The notes: generated by a model from the sequence alone, not told the origin. Shown: positions 1,463 through 22,695, numbered from the stretch's first letter. The stretch is 32,000 nt of DNA from Candidatus Electrothrix sp. GW3-4 (GCF_037902255.1 NZ_CP147990.1:1020001-1052000); one strand, 5' to 3'. Numbers and translations: made by a program.

Positions 1463-3400
1463 ATGCAGCACGAGATGTACAGTAAAAGCAGTAAAGGAGC
1501 CCTTACCAATCCCTTTAGCAATACCCGGGTCGACAGCCCGTTTCAGCAGCATATTGATCTGGATGCGGTCCATCGTGATGCCTTTATCCGCATAACCAAC
1601 CTGATCGACGAGATCAGGGGGGATAAGAATCAGCAGAGCCGGGGTGCGGTGGTGCTGGGTGTGGCTGGCAACGGCAAGACCCATTTGATGATGCGGCTGG
1701 CCCGTCATACCCTGAAGACCAATCGCCTCTTTTTTATTCGCCAGCCCAATCATGAAGAGGCGGTGTTCTATCATATCTACAGCCGGATGCTGGAGTCCTT
1801 TATCGAGCCGATCCCGGACACCGAATACTCGCAGCTGGAGTATCTCCTGGGCCGTAGTTTTTCCAAGATTGTCATCAAGACCCTTCAGGGCAGGAAGACC
1901 CTGAACAAAAAGGATGAGCATATCCTGCACGGTCTGTCCCAGGGCCAGCTCAATATCTATACCGTGCTGGGCAAGGAGGGGTCAGAGACCAAGCGGCGGA
2001 ACTGGGATTATATCGAACGCCAGACCTTGCAATGGTGGCAGGAGAGTTACGGTTTCAGTGATTATGCCTGCAATATCATCACCGGCCTGATTCGTTTTTG
2101 TCGTTATTCTGATGCCAATAAAAAGGAGCTGGTTCGGCGCTGGCTGGCTGGTCAGCATCTCTTAGAGAGTGAGCTTCAGGCGGTCAGGCTGGATAATTGG
2201 GAGGCAGAGCTGAGCCGGGAAGACTTTGCCCTTCAGGCTATGGTGGTCTTTGGCCGGCTCTCGGTGGTCGATGAGCCCCTGATTATAGTTTTTGATCAGC
2301 TGGAAGGGCTCAAGTATAATCAGGGGCTGCTGATCCGTTTCGGTGAGGCGGTCAAGGAGTTGTTTACCCATGTGCCCAACTGCCTGATGCTCTTTAATCT
2401 CTTTCCTGATCGCTGGCGTTTTTTCCGGCAACTCTTTGATGCCTCGGTTACGGAACGGATGGGTCAGTACCAGGTCGCTCTGGAATTGCCGGAGAAAACA
2501 GTATTGGCAAAGATGCTGGCTCTGAAGCTGGCTGAGGTTGATCTGGATAGTGAGACCCTGTTCAAGCCGGATGAATTGGAGATCATCCTCAGTCATGGTT
2601 CCATCCGCTCTGTGCTTAACTGCGCAGCAGAGTATTATCGCTATAAGCTGGAAGGTATTCCTCTGCCCACCAATACCCTGAGTTTTGAGGCAAGGGTTGA
2701 TCGGACCTTGCAAGAGCTGCGGCAGGAAATTGCCGAGTTACGCCAGCATCTATGCCTGGAAAAGAAACCTGATGCCGTGCCGCTTAACCCTGTGTCCAGG
2801 GAGGTGGTCAGTTATATTGAGCAGAAGCAGGGGCAACTTGCAGCAGTGTATAGCAGGAAGCAGATTATTAGTGATACGGACGATCTGGGGAAACTGCGCC
2901 TGATCCTTGATGCCTTACAACCACTGTATGGTTTTCGTCTTGATTATCTACGGCTTGGGAGGCGGCGCCTACCCGAACATGTGGTTATTCAGCACCAACA
3001 GCAGGGGGGAAAGCATGTTGGGAGTAAAAAGGTGGCTGTGGCCTTTCTTCATACTGATGCGTACACTTTTGCTCCGAGGATTAAGAATTTCAACCAGCTG
3101 GTTGTCGAGCATAAGGACATTCGTTTTGCCCTATTTCGGGATATCCGGGAACCGGAGATAAAGAGCAGGGTGGGCAAGGGCGAGATCGAAAAACTCAACA
3201 CGACCGAGAATGGGCGATTTATTCTCATGGATCGGCCCCAACGCATCCATTTTGAGTTGGTTCATCAGATTATCTCGGATATCCAGAACCACGATCTCCA
3301 TACGGAACCAGATCAGGTCATGCCTTTACTGGTGGAGATGATCGGTAAAGAATTCTGGTTGTTTCGGGCTATGGGGGGGGATCATCATGAGGAGAACTGA
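1463..3400 (+). CDS. P-loop NTPase of unknown function (AAA+-like, DnaA/Hda-style Walker motifs)
   Basis: 645-aa ORF with an ATG start. Walker A is GVAGNGKTHL at about residues 66-75 (nt ~1658-1687). A Walker-B-like LIIVFDQLEGL lies at residues 273-283, about 200 residues downstream. The C-terminal ~300 aa match no domain I recognise, and there are no TM segments. Confidence 0.8.
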   Translation: MQHEMYSKSSKGALTNPFSNTRVDSPFQQHIDLDAVHRDAFIRITNLIDEIRGDKNQQSRGAVVLGVAGNGKTHLMMRLARHTLKTNRLFFIRQPNHEEAVFYHIYSRMLESFIEPIPDTEYSQLEYLLGRSFSKIVIKTLQGRKTLNKKDEHILHGLSQGQLNIYTVLGKEGSETKRRNWDYIERQTLQWWQESYGFSDYACNIITGLIRFCRYSDANKKELVRRWLAGQHLLESELQAVRLDNWEAELSREDFALQAMVVFGRLSVVDEPLIIVFDQLEGLKYNQGLLIRFGEAVKELFTHVPNCLMLFNLFPDRWRFFRQLFDASVTERMGQYQVALELPEKTVLAKMLALKLAEVDLDSETLFKPDELEIILSHGSIRSVLNCAAEYYRYKLEGIPLPTNTLSFEARVDRTLQELRQEIAELRQHLCLEKKPDAVPLNPVSREVVSYIEQKQGQLAAVYSRKQIISDTDDLGKLRLILDALQPLYGFRLDYLRLGRRRLPEHVVIQHQQQGGKHVGSKKVAVAFLHTDAYTFAPRIKNFNQLVVEHKDIRFALFRDIREPEIKSRVGKGEIEKLNTTENGRFILMDRPQRIHFELVHQIISDIQNHDLHTEPDQVMPLLVEMIGKEFWLFRAMGGDHHEEN

Positions 3401-3482
3401 ACGGATCTTTTGAACCCTTTCAGGGTAGTTGAGAGGCCCCTCTGAGAGAAGCAGAATCTATGGGGCGGAATATATCAGCCCG

Positions 3483-3545: not shown

Positions 3546-4604
3546 ATGATGGGTAAACGACAGGGCGCGATAATGACAGCAATGGAGCGTGTGCTCACGA
3601 CCTTGGGGTATCAGGAACCGGACCGGGTCCCTTTTTTTCTGCTCTTGACCATGCACGGGGCCAGAGAGTTGGGCCTGGGTATTCAGGAATATTTTGCCAA
3701 GGCCGAGTATGTGGTGGAAGGCCAGTTGCGCATGCGCCGGAAATATGGGCACGACTGTCTCAATCCTTTTTGTTACGCAGCCATGGAGATAGAGGCCTTT
3801 GGTGGAGAGGTTATCTGGTTTGAGGACGGCCCGCCCAATAGCGGTGAACCAATTATCAAAACGGCAACAGATATCTTTTCTCTGCAGGCCCCGGAGGTAC
3901 ACAGCAGTCCCTGTCTTAACAGGGTGTTGAATATCATTCACTCCCTGAAAGAACAGGCCAGGGATGAGGTGCCGATTATCGGTACGGTCATCTCGCCCTT
4001 TTCCCTGCCTGTCATGCAGATGGGCTTTTCTGCCTATATTGAGCTGATGTATGAGCAGCCAGAACTGTTTGACCGGCTCATGGAGGTGAACCAGGAGTTT
4101 TGCGTGAACTGGGCCAATGCCCAGATCCAGGCTGGCGCCACTGCCATCTGCTATTTTGATCCCCTGACCTCACCGACCATCACCGCCCCTGGCGTACATC
4201 TGGAAAAAGGCTTTGCCGTTGCCCGTCAAACCCTGGCCAGGATCCAATCACCAACAGCCTTTCATCTGGCCTCGGGCAGGACCCTGGCCGTGGTTGATGA
4301 TATTATTGCCACGGGTTCGGCAGCCCTTGGCGTGAGCACAACAGAAGATCTCGGAGAGGTGAAAGCCGCCTGTCAGGGCAGGATGGCGGTGTTGGGAAAT
4401 TTCAACGGCATTGAAATGCGTCGCTGGACCCCGCAACAGGCAGAGGACAAGGTTCGGGAGGCTGTGGCCAAGGCAGCTGCTGGTGGCGGCTTTATCCTCT
4501 CTGATAATCACGGTGAGATCCCCTGGCAGGTCAGTGAAGAGGTCTTGCTGGCTCTTGCCGAGGCTGTGCATACATGGGGGAGGTACCCGCTTGTTGATTG
4601 CTAG
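3546..4604 (+). CDS. Uroporphyrinogen-decarboxylase (URO-D) family protein, MtaA/CmuA-like methyltransferase, paralog 1
   Basis: The ORF-track entry 3429-4604 starts at a TTG. I prefer the ATG at 3546, which is 5 nt after GGAGGA and aligns with the N-terminus of paralog 2 (MTAMERVLTTLGYQEPDRVPF vs MTSMERVLTSLAHKEPDRVPF). URO-D-family hallmarks are present: AGATAICYFDPLTSP, VLGNFNG, GGGFILSDN. Confidence 0.85.
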   Translation: MMGKRQGAIMTAMERVLTTLGYQEPDRVPFFLLLTMHGARELGLGIQEYFAKAEYVVEGQLRMRRKYGHDCLNPFCYAAMEIEAFGGEVIWFEDGPPNSGEPIIKTATDIFSLQAPEVHSSPCLNRVLNIIHSLKEQARDEVPIIGTVISPFSLPVMQMGFSAYIELMYEQPELFDRLMEVNQEFCVNWANAQIQAGATAICYFDPLTSPTITAPGVHLEKGFAVARQTLARIQSPTAFHLASGRTLAVVDDIIATGSAALGVSTTEDLGEVKAACQGRMAVLGNFNGIEMRRWTPQQAEDKVREAVAKAAAGGGFILSDNHGEIPWQVSEEVLLALAEAVHTWGRYPLVDC

Positions 4605-4650
4605 TGTTGTGCTATCTGTTTGAAAAGTAAAAGTAAAAATTGTTGTTCGG

Positions 4651-4679
4651 TTGACAGGTGCAGTTTCTCCGTATACTAT
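4651..4679 (+). promoter_or_regulatory. Sigma70-like promoter: TTGACA (4651-4656), 17-nt spacer, TACTAT (4674-4679)
   Basis: Perfect -35 hexamer, 17-nt spacer and a TAnnnT -10. It lies between the stop of paralog 1 (4604) and the corrinoid protein gene (4821). Confidence 0.35.
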
Positions 4680-4744
4680 AGGGCTATATGGGAAAGAGAT
4701 TGAAGAGATAACATAAGGTAAAATAAAATAAACACTGGCAGCGT

Positions 4745-4770
4745 AAGGTGAAGCCCCCCACCTTTTTTTT
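4745..4770 (+). terminator. Weak hairpin (AAGGTG / CACCTT) followed by a run of eight T; terminator or attenuator inside the leader of the corrinoid protein gene
   Basis: The stem pairs 4745-4750 with 4759-4764 around an 8-nt C-rich loop, and the T run spans 4763-4770. A second 6-bp hairpin (CTGTCC / GGACGG) follows at about 4779-4800. Both lie downstream of the predicted promoter. Confidence 0.3.
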
Positions 4771-4820
4771 ACGTTTTGCTGTCCCGTTTTCAAAGGACGG
4801 TTTGTTGGAAGTATTGATTA

Positions 4821-5459
4821 ATGATATCGCAAAAAAAAGAAGTTCAGACCTTTGTCGCTAAGCTTTTAAGGACTGATCGATTAGGTGCAGAAGAGATATT
4901 TAACGCTGTGCAAGAGCAGGGCTCCATGCCCCAGACGGTTGATCAACTCATCCTGCCAGCCTTGGAGACCATAGGACAAGGATGGGAAAAGGGGACAGTC
5001 GCCCTGGCCCAGGTCTATATGAGTAGCAGGATTTGTGAAGAACTGATGATCCATGTTCCCCTGTCCACCGCTCTGCAACATCCTGGATATCCGCGTATGG
5101 CGATAGCTGTCCTTGACGACTACCATCTTTTGGGAAAGATAATCGTCTCTGCCTGTTTACGGGCCAGTGGCTATGCATTCCAGGACTATGGTCGAGTGAC
5201 TTCTCAAGAGTTGGCCTGTAAAATAAAAAATGATTCTATAGAGATTATTCTTGTCTCCGCACTCATGCTTCGCTCTGCCTTGCAGATTAAGGAGGTCAAA
5301 CGTTTGCTTGTAGAGGCGGGCTCGCCAACCCGGATTGTTGTTGGCGGGGCACCGTTTCGTTTTGACCCCCTGCTTTGGAAGGAGGTGGGGGCTGATGCTA
5401 TGGGCGCAAATGCCGCAGAGGCCCTCTCCGCTATCTCCTCCTGTATAAAAACAATGTAA
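4821..5459 (+). CDS. Corrinoid (cobalamin) binding protein, MtaC/MtbC/MtsB-like
   Basis: 212 aa. The N-terminal helical cap (LILPALETIGQGWEKGTVALAQVYMSS) is followed by a Rossmann-type B12-binding domain. That domain carries the base-off/His-on signature DYHLLG (DxHxxG, residues 100-105, nt 5118-5135) and later SALM...VVGGAPF. Confidence 0.85.
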   Translation: MISQKKEVQTFVAKLLRTDRLGAEEIFNAVQEQGSMPQTVDQLILPALETIGQGWEKGTVALAQVYMSSRICEELMIHVPLSTALQHPGYPRMAIAVLDDYHLLGKIIVSACLRASGYAFQDYGRVTSQELACKIKNDSIEIILVSALMLRSALQIKEVKRLLVEAGSPTRIVVGGAPFRFDPLLWKEVGADAMGANAAEALSAISSCIKTM

Positions 5460-5468
5460 GGACAGAGC

Positions 5469-6527
5469 ATGGTTGTTGGAAACAAAAAGTCCGCAATGAC
5501 TTCAATGGAGCGTGTCCTGACGTCCTTAGCTCATAAGGAACCGGACAGGGTTCCGTTCTCTCTTATGCTGACCGTACACGGAGCCAGAGAACTGGGCCTG
5601 AGTATCAAGGAGTATTTTTCCAAGGCTGAATATGTGGTGGAAGGGCAGCTACGGATGTTGAAAAAATATCGGCACGACTGCGTGAATCCCTTTTGTGCCG
5701 CAGCAATGGCCGTGGAAGCCTTTGGCGGTGAGGTCCTCTGGTTTGAGGATGGCTCTCCAAACAGCGGCGAACCGATTATCACCACGGAAACGGATATCCT
5801 CTCCCTGCAGGTTCCGGAAATAGAGAGCAGTCCTTCTCTTGTCAGGATGCTGAAGATTATTGAGATGCTCAAAGAAAAGGTGGGAGAGGAGGTCCCTATT
5901 ATGGGGGTCGTGGTTTCCCCCTTCTCCCTGCCAGTTATGCAGATGGGTTTTTCCTCTTATATCGAGCTGATGCATGAACGTCCCGCGCTCTTTAACCGGC
6001 TTATGCAGGTGAATCAGGAGTTTTGTATTGCCTGGGCCAATACCCAGATCCTGGCCGGAGCAACTGCTATCTGTTATTTTGATGCCTTGCTCTCACCCTC
6101 TATCACCGCAGGTGCCCATCTTGAGACGGGATTCAAAATAGCACAGGACACCTTGGCCCGGATCAACAGCCCTTCGGTCATCCACATGGCAACAGCTGCC
6201 ACCCTGCCTGTTGTCGAAGAGGTTATCGCTGCCGGAGCCTCGGTAATCGGAGTGGGTATCCTGGATGATTTAGCCAAGTTGAAGGCCACCTGTCAGGGCA
6301 GACTGACAATTTTGGGCAACCTGAACGGGATTGCAATGCGTCGTTGGACACCGCAACAGGTTGAGAAAAAAGTGAAAGAGGTTATTGCCCAGGCCGCACC
6401 CGGTGGCGGTTTTATTCTTGCCGACAACGGTGAGATCCCTTGGCAGGTCGGTGAAGAGGTATTGACAGCTCTTTCAGTTGCCGCGCATAAATGGGGACGT
6501 TATCCTGTCTGCTGCCAAATGGGCTAG
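5469..6527 (+). CDS. URO-D family protein, MtaA/CmuA-like methyltransferase, paralog 2
   Basis: 352 aa with an ATG start preceded by AAGGA. It aligns colinearly with paralog 1 and is roughly two-thirds identical by eye. Confidence 0.85.
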   Translation: MVVGNKKSAMTSMERVLTSLAHKEPDRVPFSLMLTVHGARELGLSIKEYFSKAEYVVEGQLRMLKKYRHDCVNPFCAAAMAVEAFGGEVLWFEDGSPNSGEPIITTETDILSLQVPEIESSPSLVRMLKIIEMLKEKVGEEVPIMGVVVSPFSLPVMQMGFSSYIELMHERPALFNRLMQVNQEFCIAWANTQILAGATAICYFDALLSPSITAGAHLETGFKIAQDTLARINSPSVIHMATAATLPVVEEVIAAGASVIGVGILDDLAKLKATCQGRLTILGNLNGIAMRRWTPQQVEKKVKEVIAQAAPGGGFILADNGEIPWQVGEEVLTALSVAAHKWGRYPVCCQMG

Positions 6528-8407
6528 GGGGAAGGGCATTGAAACCGAGGTGTTGCTTTATTGTCTGTAAAAATTTTTTTCCTGAAGTCCAGGCGGCTGT
6601 CCAGCAGCAGGGGCTTGAAGAAGTGGAGGTCCGGTCATTTCCTCCCCATTGCTGTTCCGCTCCGCTAACTTGGCCCGAACTTGTCGATACTGTCAGGCGT
6701 TCATGGGCGGACGCTGTTGTGATTTTAGGCAGCTATTGTTTGCATGAGCTGACTGCCCCACCAGAGGAATCCTCCCGATGTAGGATTTATCGAAAGGAGC
6801 AATGCCACCACCTGTTGTGCAGTCCAACCCTTGTTGATGCCGTGCAGCAGAACGGTACCTATCTTGTGACCCCAGGTTGGCTTCATTATTGGCGAACGCA
6901 TATCTCGACCTGGGGATTTGACAGACCAACAGCCATTGAATTTTTCGGGGAATCGTTGCAGAAATTGCTCCTACTTGATACGGGCACGGACCCGGAATCG
7001 GAACAACATCTTGCTGAATTCGGGGGTTTTCTTCAGCTCCCTACCGAAGAATTGCCCATTGGCCTGGAATTCCTTGGGCTTTCCCTGTCGCAAATCATCG
7101 CTCCCTATCAACAGCAGGAACTCATACGCCAAAAAGAAGAGGTTGAGCGCCAAGCTGCTGAATCGGCAATGACCTTGGATCTTATCCGAATGGTGACCAG
7201 GGTTAAGTCAAGATCAGAAGTCGTTTCCGCCATTACTGAGCTTTTCACCATGCTGTTTGATCCGAAGGAGATATATTTTATCCCAGTGAGCAAAGCAGCT
7301 GTGCAGTTTGAGCAGGCGCCCGGCTTAAGCGCTGGAGAAAGGCTTCAGGTGCAGCAGTTTGCAGCGGGGCAGGAAAGACATCTTTTGCTGAATAAAGAGC
7401 AGGGGAGTTTCCTGTTGCGTATAGGTCGAAGAAAGGGGGGCCTAGCGGTGCTCCTGATTTCTCAAGTTGCCTATCCACAATATATTCATCAGTATATCAA
7501 TACCGCTCTTGCTGTCTCGGAAGTTTGCGCCCTGTCCATCAAGCATGTGCAGGCCTTGCGGGAATTGGTTCGCACCTCCCATCTTGCCGGTAAGGCTGAG
7601 GTGGCCACCGAGGTGCTGCATAATGTGGGCAACACCCTGAACAGTATTTCGGTATCTTCGGAGCATATTCGGGAAACGGTCCAACAGAGCAGTAGTATCA
7701 GTTTGTCTGATATTGTCCAGTTGATACAAGAGCATGAGCATGATAGGGAGAGCTTTTGCCTTCATGATCCGCGAGGGAAGAAGCTTCCTGTTTATTTTGC
7801 TAAACTTGCAGAGAAACTTGCCGAAGAACGGGGGTTCTTGCTGGCCGAAACAACCCGTCAGCTTCATCATATCCGCCGTGTTGCTGAGATTATCCGGGCC
7901 CAGCAGGATACGGCAAAACGTATTAACTGTACGGAACAGCTTAACCTGACCGCCCTTTTGGAAGAAAGCCTGGAATTATTTCAGGATGCCCTGGATGCGC
8001 AACAGATTACCGTGGAACGACGCTATGATGTTCAGCAGACGATCTCTGGAGAACCGCATAAGATATTACAGGTCGTGAGCAATCTCATCCGAAATGCCGT
8101 GGATGCCTTTGATGGGGCATCGGTTGAGCAGAGGAAGATTTCTGTGCGCACATATCCCGTTGCCGATCAGGATGAGGTCGTTGTTGAGATAAGCGATAAC
8201 GGGAAAGGCATGCAAGGAAATATCTTACAGCAGGCCTTTACCTTTGGTTTTACCACCAAAAAAAGCGGACATGGTTTTGGCCTTCATAATGCAGCTAATC
8301 TGGCAGCGGAAATGGGAGGGCGTTTGACAGGGAAAAGTGCAGGACCGGAGCAGGGAGCGCAGTTCAGGATGCGACTTCCTGTAACAGCAACTGGGGGAAC
8401 AGGATGA
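6491..8407 (+). CDS. Soluble sensor histidine kinase: DUF1638-like N-terminal domain, coiled coil, GAF-like domain, LHNVGN-type H-box, HATPase_c
   Basis: 638-aa ORF. The ATG at 6491 overlaps the previous gene by 37 nt. An in-frame TTG at 6539, preceded by AGGGGGAAGGG, would avoid the overlap. The N-terminus (CCFIVCKNFFPEV..SFPPHCCSAPL..VVILGSYCLHEL..EQCHHLLCSP..GTYLVTPGWLHYW) follows the remembered DUF1638 layout. The H-box is EVATEVLHNVGNTLNS. The ATP lid is DNGKGM...GHGFGL. No TM helices. Confidence 0.8.
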   Translation: MGTLSCLLPNGLGGRALKPRCCFIVCKNFFPEVQAAVQQQGLEEVEVRSFPPHCCSAPLTWPELVDTVRRSWADAVVILGSYCLHELTAPPEESSRCRIYRKEQCHHLLCSPTLVDAVQQNGTYLVTPGWLHYWRTHISTWGFDRPTAIEFFGESLQKLLLLDTGTDPESEQHLAEFGGFLQLPTEELPIGLEFLGLSLSQIIAPYQQQELIRQKEEVERQAAESAMTLDLIRMVTRVKSRSEVVSAITELFTMLFDPKEIYFIPVSKAAVQFEQAPGLSAGERLQVQQFAAGQERHLLLNKEQGSFLLRIGRRKGGLAVLLISQVAYPQYIHQYINTALAVSEVCALSIKHVQALRELVRTSHLAGKAEVATEVLHNVGNTLNSISVSSEHIRETVQQSSSISLSDIVQLIQEHEHDRESFCLHDPRGKKLPVYFAKLAEKLAEERGFLLAETTRQLHHIRRVAEIIRAQQDTAKRINCTEQLNLTALLEESLELFQDALDAQQITVERRYDVQQTISGEPHKILQVVSNLIRNAVDAFDGASVEQRKISVRTYPVADQDEVVVEISDNGKGMQGNILQQAFTFGFTTKKSGHGFGLHNAANLAAEMGGRLTGKSAGPEQGAQFRMRLPVTATGGTG

Positions 8408-10194
8408 CAGCAATCGCACAAGGGGTTCGGCGGGTTTTGATTATTGACGATAACCCGGAGATTCATAACGATATAAAAAAAATTTTACAACCAACGACTG
8501 CGTCTGATGATTTTGACGCCCTGCTTTCGGATATTACCGGTAAGGCCGCTGCAAAGGCGCACCAGACGATGATCCTGGTGGATTCTGCCTTTCAGGGAGA
8601 TGAGGGGGTCAAGATGGTTCGGCAGGCGAGGATGGAAGACCGGCCCTATGCCCTTGCCTTTGTTGATATGCGGATCCCTCCTGGGCCTGATGGGTTGCAG
8701 ACGCTCAAGAAATTGCAAATGGAAGATGATCGGCTTCAATATATTATTATAACAGCATTTTCTGATTATTCCTGGCAGGATATCAGTGATGCGTTGGTCT
8801 CCAAAGATAATCTCCTGATTATAAAAAAACCTTTTGAATCCATAGAAATACGTCAGAGTGCCAGTGCTCTTCTTGAAAAATGGCATATTGCTATGGAACG
8901 GGAGCATATCCTTGCTGCCCTGGCCATGCAGCGTGATATGCTGGAAGATCAGGTGCGGGAGCGAACCGCTGAGCTGGATCGAAAAAATGTTCTGCTGGAA
9001 AAAGAGGTTGAGGAGCGAAAAAAAAACGAAGAAGAGATACGGCAGCATCGAAACATGCTGGAAGAAGAGGTGGCCAGGCGAAGTGCCCGGATTGTTGAGC
9101 AGAATAATTTTCTCCACACCGTGATCAATTCCCTGCCTCATCCCTTTATGGTGGTGAATACTGTTGATTATACAGTCGCTATTGCTAATAAGGCGGGCCG
9201 GGCTGGAGGCTCTGGCGTTCCCAGAGGGGAGAAATGTTACCAATGTCTACACGGGTTGCCTCATCCCTGTCACGAGATCGGTCTTCCCTGTCCCTTGCAG
9301 GAGGTCCTCTGGCATGATGAACCGGCATTGTTTGAGCAGAGCATCTCTGACCCTCAGGGAAATGAGCGCATTCTGGAGGTTTATACCTCTCCCGTGGCGT
9401 CTCAACAGGAGAGGGGTGAAAAGAAGCAGATCATAGAATATTGTATTGATATCACTCGTCGCAAGAAACTCGAGGCGAACTTTCTGAAAAATAGCAAGAT
9501 GGGATTGGTTGCCACCTTGGCTGGAGGTATTGCCCATGACTTTAATAATCTCCTGATGGCCATTATCGGCAATATTGAGCTTGCAGCCATGAATATACCG
9601 CCTGAGCATAATGCGTGTGGATTTCTCGATGATGCAACTGAGGCCTCTGATCAGGCAAAGGTGTTGACCCATAAATTTCTGCTGTTCTCAAACTTTGACC
9701 CACCTGCCCGTCAGGCTGTTCCTCTTGGTGAGCTGATCACCACCAGCTGTTTGGCGGTACTTGCTGGCTCGAATATTGTTCAAGAATTTCATTTCGCGCA
9801 GGATTTATGGATGGGGTATATTGATCCAAGCCAGTTGGATTTGGCCCTGCGTGAACTCTTTTGTAATGCCCTGGAAGCGATGGGAACAGAGGGGCTACTT
9901 ATCTTGACTGCTGAAAATATAATCCGTTCCGGGCAGGTGCATCCTGAAAAAACCAAAGGGAAATATGTCAGGATAACCCTCCGGGATCAAGGTGTTGGTA
10001 TAGACCATAAGGATCTTGTTAACGTCTTTGACCCCTACTTCTCAAGCAAAGTGCGAGGAAACGGCAAAGGCATGGGGCTGGGATTGACCATTGCCTCCTC
10101 AATCATCCATCAGCATCAGGGCTATATAGATATTGAGTCAATCCCAGGAAAAGGAACTACTGTATACATTGAACTTCCTGCGGAAACAGAGTGA
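8404..10194 (+). CDS. Response-regulator receiver, coiled coil, Cys-rich PAS-like domain and histidine kinase (REC-HK)
   Basis: 596 aa. Its ATG at 8404 overlaps the TGA of the upstream kinase (ATGA). The REC domain has RVLIIDDNPE, FVDMRIPPGPDG and IIKKPF. The PAS-like segment has EKCYQCLHGLPHPCHEIGLPCP. The H-box is GGIAHDFNNLL. The HATPase region has DQGVGI...GKGMGLGL. Confidence 0.85.
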   Translation: MTAIAQGVRRVLIIDDNPEIHNDIKKILQPTTASDDFDALLSDITGKAAAKAHQTMILVDSAFQGDEGVKMVRQARMEDRPYALAFVDMRIPPGPDGLQTLKKLQMEDDRLQYIIITAFSDYSWQDISDALVSKDNLLIIKKPFESIEIRQSASALLEKWHIAMEREHILAALAMQRDMLEDQVRERTAELDRKNVLLEKEVEERKKNEEEIRQHRNMLEEEVARRSARIVEQNNFLHTVINSLPHPFMVVNTVDYTVAIANKAGRAGGSGVPRGEKCYQCLHGLPHPCHEIGLPCPLQEVLWHDEPALFEQSISDPQGNERILEVYTSPVASQQERGEKKQIIEYCIDITRRKKLEANFLKNSKMGLVATLAGGIAHDFNNLLMAIIGNIELAAMNIPPEHNACGFLDDATEASDQAKVLTHKFLLFSNFDPPARQAVPLGELITTSCLAVLAGSNIVQEFHFAQDLWMGYIDPSQLDLALRELFCNALEAMGTEGLLILTAENIIRSGQVHPEKTKGKYVRITLRDQGVGIDHKDLVNVFDPYFSSKVRGNGKGMGLGLTIASSIIHQHQGYIDIESIPGKGTTVYIELPAETE

Positions 10195-10229: not shown

Positions 10230-12512
10230 TCAGGCCTCATTATCAAGCACCTCCCGGACAATCTTTGCCAGTTCCTTGGTGGATAAGGGCTTGATAAGAT
10301 ATTTTTTAATACCAAGCTCAAGGGCCTCTTGTTCGGAAAAGGCAGCTGTGTAGCCTGTGCAGAGGATAATAGGCAGATCCGGCCGCAGTTGCAGGACAGA
10401 GCGGGCAAGATCACTCCCGGTGAGTTTCGGCATGGTATGGTCTGTAATCAGCAGGTCAAAGGCGTTCGGATCTTGCTGGAATATTTCCAGCGCCTTGAGG
10501 CTTTGGGTCGCAATGGTCACCTTGTAACCCAGGCTGCTGAGCAAGGAGCGATTGATATGGGTGATATCCACCTCATCATCAACAAAGAGGATTCGTTCAC
10601 TCCCCTCGGGTAGCGGTGTGTGAGGGATTTCTTGGCGCTTTCCTTGGCGCTTTCCCCCTGTTTTCTTATGTTGGGTCGGCAGATAGACATGAAAGGCGGT
10701 TCCTTGCCCGGTAACGCTTTCAACCTCAATAAAGCCGTTGCAGTCTTCCACAATACCGTGAATAACGGCTAATCCTAAGCCTGTTCCTGCTCCCTGCTCC
10801 TTGGTTGTGAAATAGGGATCAAAAATACGGCTCATGGTGATTTTATCGATTCCCTGGCCGTTGTCCTGCACAGTCAGTTTTACACTAGATCCTGGTGGCA
10901 TGGGTCTATCAGCAACACGTTCAGGAGAGAGCGTTATCGGCTTCAGACTGATCTTTAAGGTGCCCTGCTTATTGCCGATGGCATGAAAACCGTTTGTGAA
11001 GAGATTCAAGATGATTTGATGGATATTGGTTCGATCAGCAAGGACAATGCCGCATTGCTCGTCTATATCCTCTTGTATGTCTATGGTTGTTGGCAAAGAG
11101 GATCGCATCATCTTGACAGCCTCTTTGACGGTCTGGTCGATTTCGAGCTCTTTTTTTTGCTGTTTCTTTTTTCTACTAAAGGTAAGGATCTGCTTAATAA
11201 GATCGGTTGCTCGATTGCCCGCAAGAACGATTTGGTTTAAATCGTTTTCAAGAGGACTGGCCGCTGGCAGAGAGAGTTTGATTATTTCTGTATATCCGAG
11301 GATTGCAGCCAGAATATTATTGAAGTCATGGGCAATGCCCCCTGCCAGGGTACCAATGGCTTCCATCTTTCGGGCCTGAAAAAGTTCTTCCTCCAGCTTT
11401 TTTTTATCTGTTATATCGCGGGCGATATAGACAAGGTACTGGAACTGCCCCTGTTCGTCCAGAACAGGGGCTGAGCAGATATGAAAGAAATTTTCCAGGA
11501 ATTTATGCTCAAGCGTGCTGCAATGTTGGTAGTCGTCAAGCCTGGAGTGTACTCCTGGGCAGCTCGGACAGATAGTCGCTCCTTGTTGAAACAGGCTGTA
11601 ACAGGTGGTGCCAATGATCTCTTCTGAGGTTGTCTGAAAGAATTCATATGTTGCCCGATTCGCCCGGATAATGCGCATCTCACTATCCTGAAGGGTGATA
11701 ATATCTGGAATGGCGTCAAAGGTGTTTTGCCATTCTTCTGTTTGGCGCCGTAATTGTTTTTCAATAGCTGCCCGTTTTTTCATTTGCCTGCTTGTTTGCA
11801 CATAAAAGAGCACCAGGCCTGTTATTCCTATCAGATAAATCAAAAGATGATACAGGGCACTTGTTTTGAATTGTTTATGAAAGAGCTCAATAATGCCGTC
11901 AATGGGAAAGGTTATACTGATTCCGCCGCGAATATCACCGACTTGATCGCCTTTTCGCATATGGCATTGGATGCAGGTCTCTTGCGTAATTGCTGGCATC
12001 ATGACCCGCATTAAGGTCTTATCGCCTTGTTTCATTACCACGGAGGCCTCTTTTTCGCCTTGGGTAAAGGAAAGGAGGGCTGCTTTCTCCCAGTCATCTG
12101 GTGTATTTTCTGGTCGAACCGCATCAAGACTGGTGATATGACCACCGATCCCATATATCTCCTGTTCAAGCTGATATGCCTGACGGGTCATATGTGCTGG
12201 ATTGATCAGCGTGAGTTTTTTTCCGCTTGGCGTGACAATATCTCTGTCCGTAAAACCAATCAAATAGGGATTTGGCTGATTTTTGTCATTCACCGGGGCG
12301 TAGATCCCGCCGTTATGGGCATTCCATAACTCGTAAATATAGTCTTTGTTGACAGCGGTCAGGCCTATCTTCTTGCCGATAAATTCTACACTTTGCCATT
12401 CATGTTTCACATACAGGCTGAGGGAACCGGTCAGAAGGAGTGACCAGGAGAGGACGGCTGCTGCGCACCAGAGACGAAGTTGTTTGATCCCGACACTTGT
12501 GCTATTCTGCAT
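10230..12512 (-). CDS. Hybrid sensor kinase: signal-anchor TM, periplasmic DUF3365 (Tll0287-like, CxxCH), TM, Cys-rich PAS, HisKA, HATPase_c, C-terminal REC
   Basis: 760 aa. The DUF3365 pattern is GGHITSLDAVRPENTPDDWE...ETCIQCHMRKGDQVGDIRGGISITFP, with a c-type heme motif CIQCH. The H-box is GGIAHDFNNIL. The REC domain has ILFVDDE...LLITDHTMP...LIKP. Confidence 0.85.
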   Translation of the reverse strand: MQNSTSVGIKQLRLWCAAAVLSWSLLLTGSLSLYVKHEWQSVEFIGKKIGLTAVNKDYIYELWNAHNGGIYAPVNDKNQPNPYLIGFTDRDIVTPSGKKLTLINPAHMTRQAYQLEQEIYGIGGHITSLDAVRPENTPDDWEKAALLSFTQGEKEASVVMKQGDKTLMRVMMPAITQETCIQCHMRKGDQVGDIRGGISITFPIDGIIELFHKQFKTSALYHLLIYLIGITGLVLFYVQTSRQMKKRAAIEKQLRRQTEEWQNTFDAIPDIITLQDSEMRIIRANRATYEFFQTTSEEIIGTTCYSLFQQGATICPSCPGVHSRLDDYQHCSTLEHKFLENFFHICSAPVLDEQGQFQYLVYIARDITDKKKLEEELFQARKMEAIGTLAGGIAHDFNNILAAILGYTEIIKLSLPAASPLENDLNQIVLAGNRATDLIKQILTFSRKKKQQKKELEIDQTVKEAVKMMRSSLPTTIDIQEDIDEQCGIVLADRTNIHQIILNLFTNGFHAIGNKQGTLKISLKPITLSPERVADRPMPPGSSVKLTVQDNGQGIDKITMSRIFDPYFTTKEQGAGTGLGLAVIHGIVEDCNGFIEVESVTGQGTAFHVYLPTQHKKTGGKRQGKRQEIPHTPLPEGSERILFVDDEVDITHINRSLLSSLGYKVTIATQSLKALEIFQQDPNAFDLLITDHTMPKLTGSDLARSVLQLRPDLPIILCTGYTAAFSEQEALELGIKKYLIKPLSTKELAKIVREVLDNEA

Positions 12513-19839: not shown

Positions 19840-20379
19840 TTACCACCTTCTTGAATATTCCGGTGCACAGTCCAGGCAGAGCTTCTTCTCCTCATAGAGG
19901 CGAATCTTGCTCTCTACCGCTGGTTCTCCGCATTGTTCACAGGCCACGGTTTTAAAAATTTTGGCCTTAACAGGCAGGTCGTAGGCGGGTTCTGTGAAGG
20001 AAAAGATCTCCTCGTCTGGCAGGCTCAGGATCTCCTGCTGATAGGTCTTGCGGTCACCGGTTTCCTTGTTCAAGAGATGGGTGAGGCGAATACGGAGTTT
20101 TTTGTTCTGCTTACGGAGAAAGAAACTAAAGGCCTGTTTGCCTCGGTCTCTGTAAAGGAGATTACCCTTTCCAAGGGTGCAGCTGAGCAGGGCTTGGACC
20201 GCGTCCAGGCTACAGGAGTCATTTTCTGTCACACAGACCAACTCTTCGTCTGCGGCAGAGGTTACGCCCAACTGCTTCCGAGCCGCCATTGTCACTCGAA
20301 AACCTATTGCCAGGCCCGGACATTGATGGCCATGAAACGCTACACATCTCTCCCAGTCGCTTTTCCATGTTTTGTTCAT
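19840..20379 (-). CDS. FmdE-domain protein with a C-terminal zinc ribbon
   Basis: 179 aa. It has FHGHQCPGLAIGFRV (the FmdE-family signature) and a C-terminal CEQCGEP...CLDC. Confidence 0.75.
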   Translation of the reverse strand: MNKTWKSDWERCVAFHGHQCPGLAIGFRVTMAARKQLGVTSAADEELVCVTENDSCSLDAVQALLSCTLGKGNLLYRDRGKQAFSFFLRKQNKKLRIRLTHLLNKETGDRKTYQQEILSLPDEEIFSFTEPAYDLPVKAKIFKTVACEQCGEPAVESKIRLYEEKKLCLDCAPEYSRRW

Positions 20380-20483: not shown

Positions 20484-21140
20484 TCAACTGATATCTTCCA
20501 GCAGGCCGAGTTTGGCTGCATAACGAACCAGATCGACCGTACTGTGGAGGTCCAGCTTACTGAGGATGTTGGCCCGATGATTAGTCACGGTTTTCGCGCT
20601 GATGCAGAGTTTGTCCGCGATATCCGCTACCGCAGTCCCCTGAGCCAATAGCCGGAAAATTTCCTGCTCTCGGGCGGTGAGGTTACCATAGGTTGAATCG
20701 GAGAGATCCGAGGATTCAGCAGCCTCAAGAAGCCGTCCAACGATCTCCCGGGAAAGGGCTGAATCCAGATAGTACTCATCCAGCAGGGCCGCCTCAAGCG
20801 CATTCTGTAAACAGTCGGAAACCGATTCCTTGACAATATAACCGATTGCCCCGGCCCGTAATGCGCCCATGATATAATCAATCTTTGAATGCATACTGAC
20901 AATGATAATGCGGGTCTCTGGCACTGCTCCCTTTAAGAGCCTGGTCAGCTGAATCCCGCTCTTGTCCGGGAGGGAGAGGTCAACCACCGCAATATCCGGT
21001 TTGATGGTGCGGACCACCTCTTCCCCATGCCGGGCATCAGCACCTTCACCGGCAACCTCAAAGTCAGAATATTTTTCAATAAGCTGTCGGAGACCGGCCC
21101 GAAAGGTATCGTGGTCGTCAATAAGGACTATTTTTTTCAT
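20484..21140 (-). CDS. NarL/LuxR-family response regulator (REC + HTH_LuxR)
   Basis: 218 aa. It has KIVLIDDHDTFRAGL, AVVDLSLPDKSG, and a C-terminal LTAREQEIFRLLAQGTAVADIADKLCISAKTVTNHRANILSKL. Confidence 0.9.
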   Translation of the reverse strand: MKKIVLIDDHDTFRAGLRQLIEKYSDFEVAGEGADARHGEEVVRTIKPDIAVVDLSLPDKSGIQLTRLLKGAVPETRIIIVSMHSKIDYIMGALRAGAIGYIVKESVSDCLQNALEAALLDEYYLDSALSREIVGRLLEAAESSDLSDSTYGNLTAREQEIFRLLAQGTAVADIADKLCISAKTVTNHRANILSKLDLHSTVDLVRYAAKLGLLEDIS

Positions 21141-21159: not shown

Positions 21160-22695
21160 TCAGGTTAATCTGACCTCGGCCTTTTCTGGGACTGGGCCGG
21201 GGAATTCAATGATAATCTTGGTCCCTTGCTCGGGGGCAGAACGGATCTTAAAGGTGCCGTGCATCATCCGCACCCGTTCTTCCATGCCGAGTAAACCGAA
21301 GCGTTTGTTTTCCAGGGCCTTGCGAACCCCCTGTTCAGGATCAAAGCCGCAGCCGTTATCTTCTACACGGAGAATGATATTCGGATGAGAGGCTATCAGG
21401 CGTATTTCGACCTTTGTTGCCTGGGCATGTCGTTCAATATTATTCAAGCTCTCCTGAACCAGGCGGTATACATTGATCGCATCGTCAAAGGGGAAGTCCA
21501 AGGTGTCGACACCAGCCTTGGAGAACTGGATAAAGATGCCGGTCTGTTTGCTGAAATCTCGACAATAGTCAGCTATAGCGCTGGCAAGCCCTATCTGCTC
21601 AAGCCCGGGGGGACGGAGATTATAGGAGAGCTCGCGCACGGTCTTGATACAGTGATTCAGGAGCTTGGCCCAGTCAGCTCTTTCCTCCTCACTGGGAGGG
21701 CTTCCCTTGGCGGCGTCCTGGAGCAGGCTTTCGCCGGTAATTTTCAGGGAGGAAAGATTTTGCGCCACATTATCATGGAGGTAAAGGGAGATCTGCTGGC
21801 GCTCGGTTTCCTGCACGGTCAAGAGCTTCTGCGATAAATTATGCACCTGCTCCTCCGCCTTTCTGAGTTCTGCATTGGCATGTAGCAGTTCCTCAGTCCT
21901 TTCCTGGACCTTGAGGTCGAATTCATTATGATAACCGGCCAGTTGATCAGCCATCTTGCCGAATTCTTTGGCAAGAAACTCAAACTCATCACCTGAATTG
22001 ATATGCACCTGATGGCTGAGATTCCCCCTGCCGATTTGCCGGGTCCCTTCCTGTAGGATTTTCATGGGGCCCAGCACAGAGCGCATCATGAGGAAGACAA
22101 CAATGAGGGTCAGGAAGATAACTGCGAGCCCGGTTAGAGCGACAACTGCCAGGGTATGACGATATTGTTGCCCGACAAAGGCCTCGGTTCTGTCGATCTG
22201 GCGCAGATGGAGATGGAGATGTTTGTCAATGGCGTTTTCCAGATGCCCCAGCTCCTCCCGGATTGCCTCGGAGATCTTTGCAAGTTCCTCCTTGGCAGTG
22301 GGCCAACTCTGCTCGGATTTTTCCAAAAGGTATTGGGAGAGCGTTGTCGCAAAAATAACATGGTGGAGCATCTTATGGGCAGCCTGCTCATCTGGCGTTA
22401 AGGACTTATGCTTATGCTTGGCATGGGTCTCTATCATCACACTGAGCTGATTCGCCTTTTCCCTGATCAGGCTCCGGTCAAACTGTTTTTCCCGAATCCC
22501 TGTTTCCAGAGAGAGGAGCAGTTTTTTGAGATCCAGCATAGCAGAGGCATTTATTGTTGCCTCCTGTTGCAACTGGGTAAAATGGCTATGAACGGTTGAA
22601 AAGGTCCAGACGCACCACCCTCCTTGAATGAGGATGACGAGCAGCAGGGGAAGAAAGTAGAGAAGGAATCTCTTGCGGAGGCCGATTTTTAACAT
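21160..22695 (-). CDS. Sensor histidine kinase, NarX-like (2 TM, periplasmic helical domain, HAMP, HisKA_3, HATPase_c)
   Basis: 511 aa. The H-box is LHDNVAQNLSSLKI (HisKA_3). The HATPase region has VEDNGCGF...FGLLGMEERV. It ends 19 nt upstream of the response-regulator gene. Confidence 0.85.
   Translation of the reverse strand: MLKIGLRKRFLLYFLPLLLVILIQGGWCVWTFSTVHSHFTQLQQEATINASAMLDLKKLLLSLETGIREKQFDRSLIREKANQLSVMIETHAKHKHKSLTPDEQAAHKMLHHVIFATTLSQYLLEKSEQSWPTAKEELAKISEAIREELGHLENAIDKHLHLHLRQIDRTEAFVGQQYRHTLAVVALTGLAVIFLTLIVVFLMMRSVLGPMKILQEGTRQIGRGNLSHQVHINSGDEFEFLAKEFGKMADQLAGYHNEFDLKVQERTEELLHANAELRKAEEQVHNLSQKLLTVQETERQQISLYLHDNVAQNLSSLKITGESLLQDAAKGSPPSEEERADWAKLLNHCIKTVRELSYNLRPPGLEQIGLASAIADYCRDFSKQTGIFIQFSKAGVDTLDFPFDDAINVYRLVQESLNNIERHAQATKVEIRLIASHPNIILRVEDNGCGFDPEQGVRKALENKRFGLLGMEERVRMMHGTFKIRSAPEQGTKIIIEFPGPVPEKAEVRLT

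Follow-up and report, generated by a model that had tools for sequence, protein, structure and literature searches.

What does a DUF1638 domain do at the front of a histidine kinase whose gene follows those of a small corrinoid protein and of methyltransferase-like proteins? This question is raised by a locus of Candidatus Electrothrix sp. GW3-4 (NZ_CP147990.1:1020001-1052000); the whole stretch of 32,000 nucleotides (nt) that we analysed is referred to as the window, and positions are counted from its first letter. An earlier note on this DNA had proposed that the domain is a sensory or ligand-binding input of the kinase. On the basis of profile searches, structure prediction and locus comparison, we find that the kinase is one member of a large family of DUF1638 fusions. 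Its gene belongs to a cassette of three, which also encodes the small corrinoid protein (CorP) and a protein resembling uroporphyrinogen decarboxylase (URO-D) and MtaA, here called URO-D-like.

The kinase gene and its start codon

The kinase is encoded on the plus strand by a real open reading frame (ORF) of 638 aa (6491..8407), which contains a DUF1638-like N-terminus and all five N-terminal motifs quoted in the earlier note. ATG 6491 opens this maximal ORF. Most likely, the real start is TTG 6539 rather than ATG 6491, and the product is a sensor histidine kinase of 622 aa (6539..8407, plus strand), as judged from Pfam matches, homologue starts and motifs. We prefer TTG 6539 because cable-bacterial homologues of the kinase begin MK(S/P)xCCF(I/V)VC. 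The segment GGGGGAAGG lies just 5' of this codon, which stands 11 nt past the stop of the preceding gene. The 16 codons at 6491-6538, which overlap the upstream gene, are probably untranslated. The earlier note had considered a start so far downstream that the N-terminal region is lost; the start does move to TTG 6539, and DUF1638 is intact with either codon. Residues are numbered from TTG 6539 below.

With a Kyte-Doolittle maximum of 1.22 over 19 residues, the kinase is soluble, and the previous claim that it has no transmembrane helices is borne out.

The closest homologues are all cable-bacterial (Candidatus Electrothrix, Desulfobulbus sp. US4). A database homologue from a Logan assembly, P0004, is identical to the window kinase until a frameshift into the +1 ORF at 6918-7172. 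The tail of P0001 (Desulfobulbus sp. US4, 345 aa) resembles what the opposite strand of the kinase gene would encode and may stem from an assembly artefact or an inversion.

The DUF1638 domain

The N-terminal domain (residues 1-176; 6539..7066, plus strand) has an α/β fold, as delimited by PF07796, the secondary structure of an AlphaFold2 model and residue conservation. The earlier note had identified it as DUF1638 and suggested a profile comparison. PF07796 matches kinase residues 1-220 with 42.8 bits (E 6.5e-11), where the gathering threshold is 27 bits; in the full-length kinase it scores 40.0 bits, covering profile positions 23-157 of 161. Because the profile match is significant, the identification stands.

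We aligned the window protein with 149 representatives (150 sequences, pairwise identity at most 50%). Four cysteines are strongly conserved, C10 (98%), C38 (94%), C67 (91%) and C89 (98%), together with E16 (95%), G64 (93%), W114 and W118 (99%) and D147 (98%). The stretch G106..P112-G113-W114-L115..W118 is 91-99% conserved in the fusions, and TPGW (111-114) and LLDTG (145-149) are signature segments. The motifs quoted before correspond to the most conserved columns of the fusion family.

The AlphaFold2 model of residues 1-345, built on an 84-sequence alignment, has a predicted local distance difference test score (pLDDT) of 94.5 and a predicted TM-score (pTM) of 0.80; a single-sequence run (pLDDT 40) was not used. 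Together with Foldseek searches, a combination that the earlier note had also suggested, it reveals the α/β DUF1638 domain, a helix and a GAF-like module. The strands of DUF1638 (5-10, 29-34, 59-64, 81-85, 107-110, 142-147, 169-173) alternate with helices, and each of the four conserved Cys lies at, or 3-4 residues past, the end of one of β-strands 1-4. By this topology, the four Cys and the Glu would form a site on the C-terminal edge of the β-sheet, the usual cofactor edge in β-α-β domains. The chemistry of this site could be that of an Fe-S centre, Zn or reactive thiols.

Sequence and profile searches of the PDB with the domain return nothing significant. Comparison of the DUF1638 profile with the B12-binding, URO-D-like and GAF-like profiles by hhalign gives no relationship (probability at most 1%), and the possibility that DUF1638 is a cryptic B12-binding domain was rejected on the comparison with the B12-binding profile of the cassette. 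A word-indexed protein search, which gave only 9-18 close or fragmentary matches even when run with a profile and E<=10, did not reach the canonical stand-alone DUF1638 proteins.

Helix, GAF-like module and kinase core

Behind DUF1638, the kinase extends into a long connecting helix of 44 residues (177-220; 7067..7198, plus strand), modelled with pLDDT 86-98, which is likely a dimeric signalling helix. Its motif (R)QxA(D/E)(Y/S)AM is kept in sensors both with and without DUF1638. The α/β module that follows (residues 225-345; 7211..7573, plus strand) leads into a long exit helix in the model. Foldseek matches it to GAF structures (KdpD 4y2f, target TM-score 0.71; Lcd1 5w10, E 6e-5; 3p01), and Pfam GAF models give no match to it even at E<=1. 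Its best columns are conserved at 75-86% and are mostly hydrophobic, with no strongly conserved polar residue.

In the kinase core, an H-box-like LHNVGN (residues 360-365; 7616..7633, plus strand) carries the putative phospho-accepting His361, which is His377 in the 638-aa numbering. HisKA-type Pfam models find no match here. The HATPase_c catalytic domain (8054..8386, plus strand) scores 72.5 bits in Pfam, and the N, G1, F and G2 boxes are located as NLIRNA, DNGKG, FTFGF and GHGFGL. The modelled helix, the Foldseek matches and the HATPase_c score agree with the coiled coil, GAF-like domain and kinase core described before.

DUF1638 signalling fusions form a large family

We searched 1.84 billion representative sequences exhaustively with the N-terminal 220 residues by phmmer and obtained 1036 matches at E<=1e-3; 867 of these reach E<=1e-10. 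With few exceptions, the top 150 are proteins of 400-1479 aa with DUF1638 at the extreme N-terminus (residues ~4-195). The fusion is not a one-off: the family comprises about 1000 protein clusters at 50% identity.

The earlier note had called for a survey of DUF1638 architectures, and further signalling fusions are indeed found, with histidine kinase (HK), PAS, GGDEF and REC outputs. Among 78 scanned representatives, Pfam matches DUF1638 in 76 (E<=1e-3), HATPase_c in 52, HisKA in 42, PAS in about 14, REC in 8 and GGDEF in 6; a canonical GAF is present in 8, and HisKA_2, HWE and STAS in a few. Directly after DUF1638, the helix-GAF module is found in 131 of 133 long fusions.

Short matches that look like stand-alone DUF1638 proteins turned out to be the same cassette carrying frameshifts or an in-frame stop. 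In Ca. Rifleibacterium amylolyticum (L139:2078-4591), a lone in-frame stop parts DUF1638 from a GAF-like-PAS-HK-REC protein; it could be a natural two-gene split, a sequencing error or a recoded stop.

CorP and URO-D-like genes accompany the sensor

In the forward direction, the motif FD[RQ]xTAx[EQ]FF, sought in a single genome of each species, identifies 56 loci. The hosts include Desulfobacterota, Chloroflexota, Actinomycetota, Thiocapsa (Gammaproteobacteria), Planctomycetota including Brocadiaceae, Acidobacteriota, Spirochaetota, Verrucomicrobiota, Aminicenantes, Riflebacteria and others, more than 10 phyla overall. The upstream neighbours were found by tblastn with the neighbour proteins of the window. 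CorP, a small B12-binding protein, and a URO-D-like protein are encoded immediately upstream of the sensor in 52 of the 53 informative loci, with identities to the window proteins of 39-78% and 44-81%, respectively. The usual order is CorP, URO-D-like, sensor, whereas three Electrothrix loci have URO-D-like, CorP, sensor. In most loci, the distance from the URO-D-like stop to the sensor start is -35 to +38 nt, and an 11-nt overlap is commonest. The sole exception (L025) has an N-terminally truncated DUF1638 without C10 and C38, and the corrinoid pair is missing there. The three genes travel as a single autonomous unit.

The same three genes occur at three short-match loci and on a plasmid of the cultured Azoarcus sp. 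KH32C (L137; pAZKH, 738 kb, NC_020548.1 271288-276437), where an HK-REC hybrid follows. The Azoarcus proteins are annotated as 'cobalamin-dependent protein', 'uroporphyrinogen decarboxylase family protein' and 'ATP-binding protein'. Its DUF1638 scores 22.5 bits, which misses the Pfam cut-off, and for this reason RefSeq names the sensor merely an ATP-binding protein; the Pfam DUF1638 model appears to under-call this clade. An uncultured member of the Anaerolineales (L023:2944-9230) has tandem cassettes that together encode two corrinoid proteins and two DUF1638 sensors; a REC-HK hybrid precedes them.

Outside the three genes, the flanks are not conserved, and Pfam finds only scattered REC and HK domains in 114 downstream and 112 upstream neighbours. 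RamA/DUF4445 was not found within +/-3.5 kb in the 56 loci, nor anywhere in the 32-kb window. MttB-, MtaB- and MtgB-type substrate methyltransferases and pterin-binding methyltransferases are likewise absent from the flanks of the 56 loci and from the window. Rfam has no match in the window, hence no cobalamin riboswitch. The absence of RamA and of substrate and pterin methyltransferases speaks for a cassette devoted to sensing and against a catabolic operon. The corrinoid context noticed before is thus upheld as a link to corrinoid proteins, but not as a metabolic methyltransferase cassette, since both the Zn ligands described below and the pathway genes are absent.

The corrinoid protein and the URO-D-like proteins

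CorP of the window (4821..5459, plus strand) consists of a cap and a Rossmann domain, matched by Pfam B12-binding_2 and B12-binding. Its DxHxxG His-on motif reads D-Y-H-L-L-G, and DxHxxG, SALM, GGAPF, W55 and QVYM are at least 95% conserved in 49 CorP homologues. In the PDB, CorP is closest to methylamine and methanol corrinoid proteins, with CarH next. The cap aligns to that of CarH (E 4e-6), and the CarH-like Trp is kept as GxxWxxG. The CarH-type cap motif is W-x9-E-H; in CorP, the position of the Glu-His pair is occupied by an invariant Val-Tyr (QVYM), and Pfam detects no DNA-binding domain. CorP scores just 60.5 with TIGR02370 against a cut-off of 215, so we consider it a distinct clade of corrinoid proteins.

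Two URO-D-like copies are present in the window and in two close relatives. Copy 1 (3546..4604, plus strand; Pfam URO-D 183 bits) is of the canonical type, with FHLASG and SDNHGEIPW, and is 74-78% identical to the single copy of other Electrothrix loci. Its ORF opens at 3429, and the probable start is ATG 3546, preceded by GGGGGAGG. Copy 2 (5469..6527, plus strand; PF01208 URO-D 178 bits) is a divergent paralogue adjacent to the sensor, with IHMATA in place of H(L/M/F)ASG, a divergence shared only with the two nearest Electrothrix loci (L001 and L002).

URO-D-like proteins are about equally similar to uroporphyrinogen decarboxylases and to MtaA. The NCBIfam MtaA/CmuA models (TIGR01463 / NF004889) give 94-104 bits against cut-offs of 235-244 (copy 1, 98 against 235). 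In the alignment with MtaA 4ay7, HICG becomes HMAT and PGCG becomes DN(H)GE, by which the zinc-ligand set HxC...C is lost. HxA, as H-x-A-(S/T), is present in at least 95% of 55 cassette URO-D-like proteins, and PDRVP, SPFSLP, Y-x-D, GNL and GGF-L-x-DNHGEIP are invariant at identities of 45-80% between phyla. By these sequence features, the CorP and URO-D-like partners look functional.

The 216-nt spacer between copy 1 and CorP (4605-4820) contains a promoter-like TTGACA-17-TACTAT (4651-4679) and a terminator-like hairpin with a T-run (4745-4764), both as consensus matches only. Copy 1 may be transcribed apart from the CorP-copy 2-kinase unit.

Sensors with and without DUF1638 at URO-D-like loci

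In the reverse direction, metagenomes were scanned with URO-D-like motifs only; the best 80 of 551 relatives were analysed, and 71 loci were informative. CorP is adjacent upstream in 71 of 71. A DUF1638 sensor lies downstream of the URO-D-like gene in 51 loci, and 19 of the remaining 20 have a sensor that starts straight with the helix (..RKQxSDYAMAxDL..) and the GAF-like module. A helix-GAF sensor is therefore downstream in 70 of the 71 loci, and the invariant core is CorP, the URO-D-like protein and a helix-GAF-like sensor. The retention of DUF1638, about 72%, is approximate, since the 80 loci are those nearest to the query.

The DUF1638-less sensors continue into HK, into PAS-GGDEF or into a Cys-rich tail of ~70 aa (LSGLLPICSHCKKIRDDKGYWNQIE...FSHGIC..C). 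The form with this tail is a protein of ~240 aa, whose tail (LSGLLPICSHCKKIRDDKGYWNQIE..YI..HS.A.FSHGIC..C) is matched by no model of Pfam or NCBIfam and may represent an output domain not yet characterised. It is found at L069:5232-5948, L081:2244-2990, L083:1826-2542, L086:5055-5777, L088:1984-2727, L094:3416-4165 and L095:2186-2905.

Comparison with known systems

DUF1638 is not wholly the orphan family that the earlier note had described, given a phenotype in methionine synthesis (PMC5764234) and co-induction with RamA (PMC12478193). In Phaeobacter inhibens, the gene of a stand-alone DUF1638 protein (PGA1_c13340) directly follows that of the B12-binding subunit in a methionine synthase made of three parts; the protein is needed for methionine-free growth, its phylogenetic distribution mirrors that of a RamA-like activator, and the authors proposed no mechanism (PMC5764234). 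In Ruegeria pomeroyi, SPO2162 is induced with RamA in glycine betaine demethylation and is predicted to act in cobalamin recharging (PMC12478193). The stand-alone proteins and the kinase share the PF07796 family and the position beside a small B12-binding protein. The stand-alone form serves metabolism, in split MetH or in the demethylation of glycine betaine, and is found in company with a RamA-like activator. In contrast, DUF1638 of the kinase is fused to a helix-GAF-kinase, has a Zn-less URO-D-like partner and lacks a linked RamA.

The cassette also resembles MtaA/MtaC of methanogens (MT2; 4ay7, 2i2x), where a URO-D TIM barrel and a DxHxxG B12 protein are encoded by adjacent genes. However, the cassette URO-D-like protein has HxA...H for the HxC...C of MtaA, an MtaB-type partner is absent, and the pair is wired to a sensor, not to a pathway. 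MsmS and RdmS of Methanosarcina acetivorans are soluble GAF kinases near corrinoid and methyltransferase genes, and in this they are like the cassette kinase. Unlike it, they hold a covalent haem in GAF, regulate metabolic Mts fusion proteins and have no DUF1638, and the corrinoid proteins are their targets. MecA, the kinase of the dichloromethane mec cassette, was considered as a relative and set aside; it uses a PocR domain and is unrelated.

On the other hand, CarH/LitR, AerR and the B12-binding/photoglobin operons employ a B12-binding protein as the sensing element (PMC8717448). The cassette differs from CarH in that it has no MerR DNA-binding domain, carries Val-Tyr for Glu-His and ends in a kinase or cyclic di-GMP (c-di-GMP) output, and from CarH-type regulators in general by its partners, the URO-D-like enzyme and DUF1638. 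The photoglobin/B12-binding operons were rejected as the same system; they are a different one. We found no description of the three-gene cassette in the searchable literature, and the DUF1638 kinase cassette, which is widespread and generically annotated, appears undescribed there.

A proposed corrinoid-based sensing unit

The tight linkage across phyla, the variable outputs and the absent pathway genes together argue for one sensory device, whose signal comes from corrinoid chemistry. What the data show are the identities of the domains, their fold, the conserved residues and the obligatory linkage of the genes, whereas we infer the physical contact, the corrinoid state that is sensed, the nature of the Cys site and the phosphotransfer partner. 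In our proposal, the kinase would be the read-out subunit of a three-protein corrinoid-based sensing unit. The Zn-less URO-D-like protein (3546-4604, paralogue 5469-6527) would work on the His-on CorP (4821-5459). The primary signal would be whether the corrinoid on CorP is methyl-Co(III), Co(I) or oxidised Co(II), a state set by the URO-D-like protein and the redox environment. By analogy with the stand-alone DUF1638 protein and the B12 subunit of the split methionine synthase, DUF1638 would engage CorP. The helix and the GAF-like module would transmit the change to the DHp/HATPase core, where His361 would be phosphorylated, and the phosphoryl group would then pass to the REC domain of a translationally coupled hybrid (8404-10194).

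This hybrid, REC-PAS-HisKA-HATPase by Pfam (8404..10194, plus strand), has an ATG that overlaps the kinase stop (ATGA). Its REC domain scores 34 bits against a cut-off of 30.2 and reads DD...FVDMRIP...KKP, with an acidic pocket and Lys; from these features, the hybrid is a likely phosphoryl acceptor of the DUF1638 kinase. A REC-PAS-HK is downstream only in the loci related to cable bacteria (L002-L009).

In our judgement, there is about an even chance that the DUF1638-helix-GAF module reads the cobalamin state on CorP and that the signal passes first to the kinase and from there to the REC hybrid whose gene overlaps that of the kinase. We put forward more tentatively, and with some doubt, that an enzymatic event on protein-bound cobalamin is the primary sensing step, read by the DUF1638/GAF-like module, which would be a new mode of perception. 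Such an event could be methyl transfer by the Zn-less URO-D-like protein or oxidation of the super-reduced cofactor. The stimulus might, among other candidates, be a donor or acceptor of methyl groups, redox conditions of low potential, a compound that oxidises Co(I), or light.

Several observations weigh against this proposal. In 19 of the 71 reverse-scan loci, the sensor lacks DUF1638 and the remaining cassette is unchanged, so the corrinoid pair must also be able to reach the output by a route other than DUF1638. In these loci, the URO-D-like proteins nest within the diversity of the DUF1638-containing loci (mean identity 0.64 between the classes, 0.61 inside the DUF1638 class). This nesting suggests a loss of DUF1638 in one sub-lineage; the domain is frequent and dispensable in cis, and probably ancestral. 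The idea of DUF1638 as a sensory or ligand-binding input accordingly fares unevenly, with its corrinoid link strengthened and its part as the input weakened by the 19 loci. In the window, a one-residue deletion in copy 2, the sensor-adjacent copy, removes the near-invariant His of DNHGEIP, and this copy may be a degenerating or neo-functionalised paralogue. The lack of a RamA gene near the cassettes is a further point, as it leaves the upkeep of a Co(I)/methyl cycle unaccounted for, and we infer the spatial clustering of the four Cys in DUF1638 from topology alone.

Alternative explanations

The sensors without DUF1638 bring up a different division of labour, in which DUF1638 is a maintenance factor in cis that loads, repairs or reductively reactivates CorP through its Cys site and is fused to the sensor merely to stay within reach, and the helix-GAF module receives the signal. 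We consider this rather unlikely, although it is the foremost alternative and the architecture without DUF1638 favours it. The helix-GAF module persists after CorP and the URO-D-like protein in 19 of the 20 loci without a DUF1638 sensor, and it also accompanies DUF1638 in 131 of 133 fusions. The P. inhibens phenotype and the co-occurrence with RamA indicate a helper of B12 proteins (PMC5764234, PMC12478193), and the strongly conserved Cys/Glu/Asp/Trp set looks catalytic or cofactor-binding. However, the GAF-like module, which would have to receive the signal, has no strongly conserved polar residue for a ligand or a contact. Enzyme-like helpers are rarely placed N-terminal to a signalling helix unless they modulate the output, and DUF1638 is kept in about 72% of loci and is apparently ancestral.

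DUF1638 could also be a self-contained sensor of redox state, oxygen or metal, whose Fe-S or Zn site or thiols would control the kinase directly, and the corrinoid pair its co-regulated client instead of the origin of the signal. Fe-S based kinase inputs exist, such as NreB. The four Cys, 91-98% conserved at the ends of β-strands 1-4, would suit such a site, and the hosts are mostly anaerobes or microaerophiles. We nevertheless regard this explanation as improbable: it leaves unaccounted for the obligatory, tight linkage of CorP and the URO-D-like protein to sensors of varied output, and likewise the same pair beside sensors that lack DUF1638.

A light sensor, marginally less probable again, would carry a CarH-like photolabile alkyl-cobalamin on CorP; the URO-D-like protein would re-alkylate it, and the sensor would read photolysis. 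The alignment of the CorP cap to CarH (E 4e-6) with its Trp kept, the cassette in phototrophic Thiocapsa and the proposal that B12-binding proteins in signalling operons are photosensors (PMC8717448) are consistent with it. However, the Glu-His pair of CarH is an invariant Val-Tyr in CorP, the nearest PDB relatives of CorP are methyltransferase corrinoid proteins, and the hosts (cable bacteria, Desulfobacterales, Anaerolineae, Brocadiaceae) mostly inhabit dark sediment, groundwater and sludge.

Least probable of all is ordinary two-component control of an adjacent methyl-transfer catabolic operon with DUF1638 binding the methylated substrate, suggested by the position of the kinase behind MtaA-like and corrinoid protein genes: a methyltransferase for substrate or methyl acceptor, or an activator, is neither in the window nor conserved in the 56 loci, so that the kinase as regulator of such an operon was rejected on neighbourhood gene content, and furthermore the URO-D-like protein lacks the Zn ligands of MtaA and falls far under the MtaA/CmuA cut-offs, the outputs include GGDEF and hybrid kinases with no linked DNA-binding regulator, and the overlapping genes imply joint action of their products.

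Neighbouring genes in the window

Beyond the REC hybrid, a convergent hybrid kinase (10230..12512, minus strand) has the Pfam architecture Tll0287-like (PF11845)-PAS-HisKA-HATPase-REC. It is kept at this position in L002-L009 only and may belong to the same phosphorelay, as part of a three-kinase relay in cable bacteria. Directly upstream of the cassette, 1463-3400 (plus strand) encodes a 645-aa STAND/AAA-type ATPase with weak AAA_16 and nSTAND matches. It occurs in the same place, at 72-88% identity, in the Electrothrix loci L002, L003 and L007, and not in other phyla. Farther away, 19840-20379 (minus strand) encodes a small protein with an FmdE domain and a DksA/TraR C4 zinc finger, and its gene adjoins those of a LuxR-type response regulator (20484-21140) and a HAMP-HisKA_3 kinase (21160-22695).

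Implications

DUF1638 has a clear genetic phenotype but no mechanism. The fusion offers a kinase or c-di-GMP read-out for it, and the two genes that obligatorily accompany the sensor point to the proteins with which it likely interacts directly. The cassette is abundant: there are about 1000 clusters at 50% identity and more than 550 metagenomic relatives of the URO-D-like protein, and the hosts, from more than 10 phyla, include cable bacteria, sulfate reducers, anammox bacteria, Anaerolineae and purple sulfur bacteria. We view the cassette as kin to sensor kinases with accessory proteins and to B12-based regulators, and there is a credible chance that it embodies a new sensing principle. If the corrinoid state is the signal, the cassette would add a B12-based modality that is not a photoreceptor to bacterial signal transduction, and anaerobes could use it to keep track of methyl donors, low-potential redox state or oxidants. 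Should an enzymatic event on the cobalamin be the primary sensing step, such sensing would serve histidine-kinase and c-di-GMP outputs in more than ten phyla and would give DUF1638 its first mechanistic role, that of recognising or resetting the state of a corrinoid protein.

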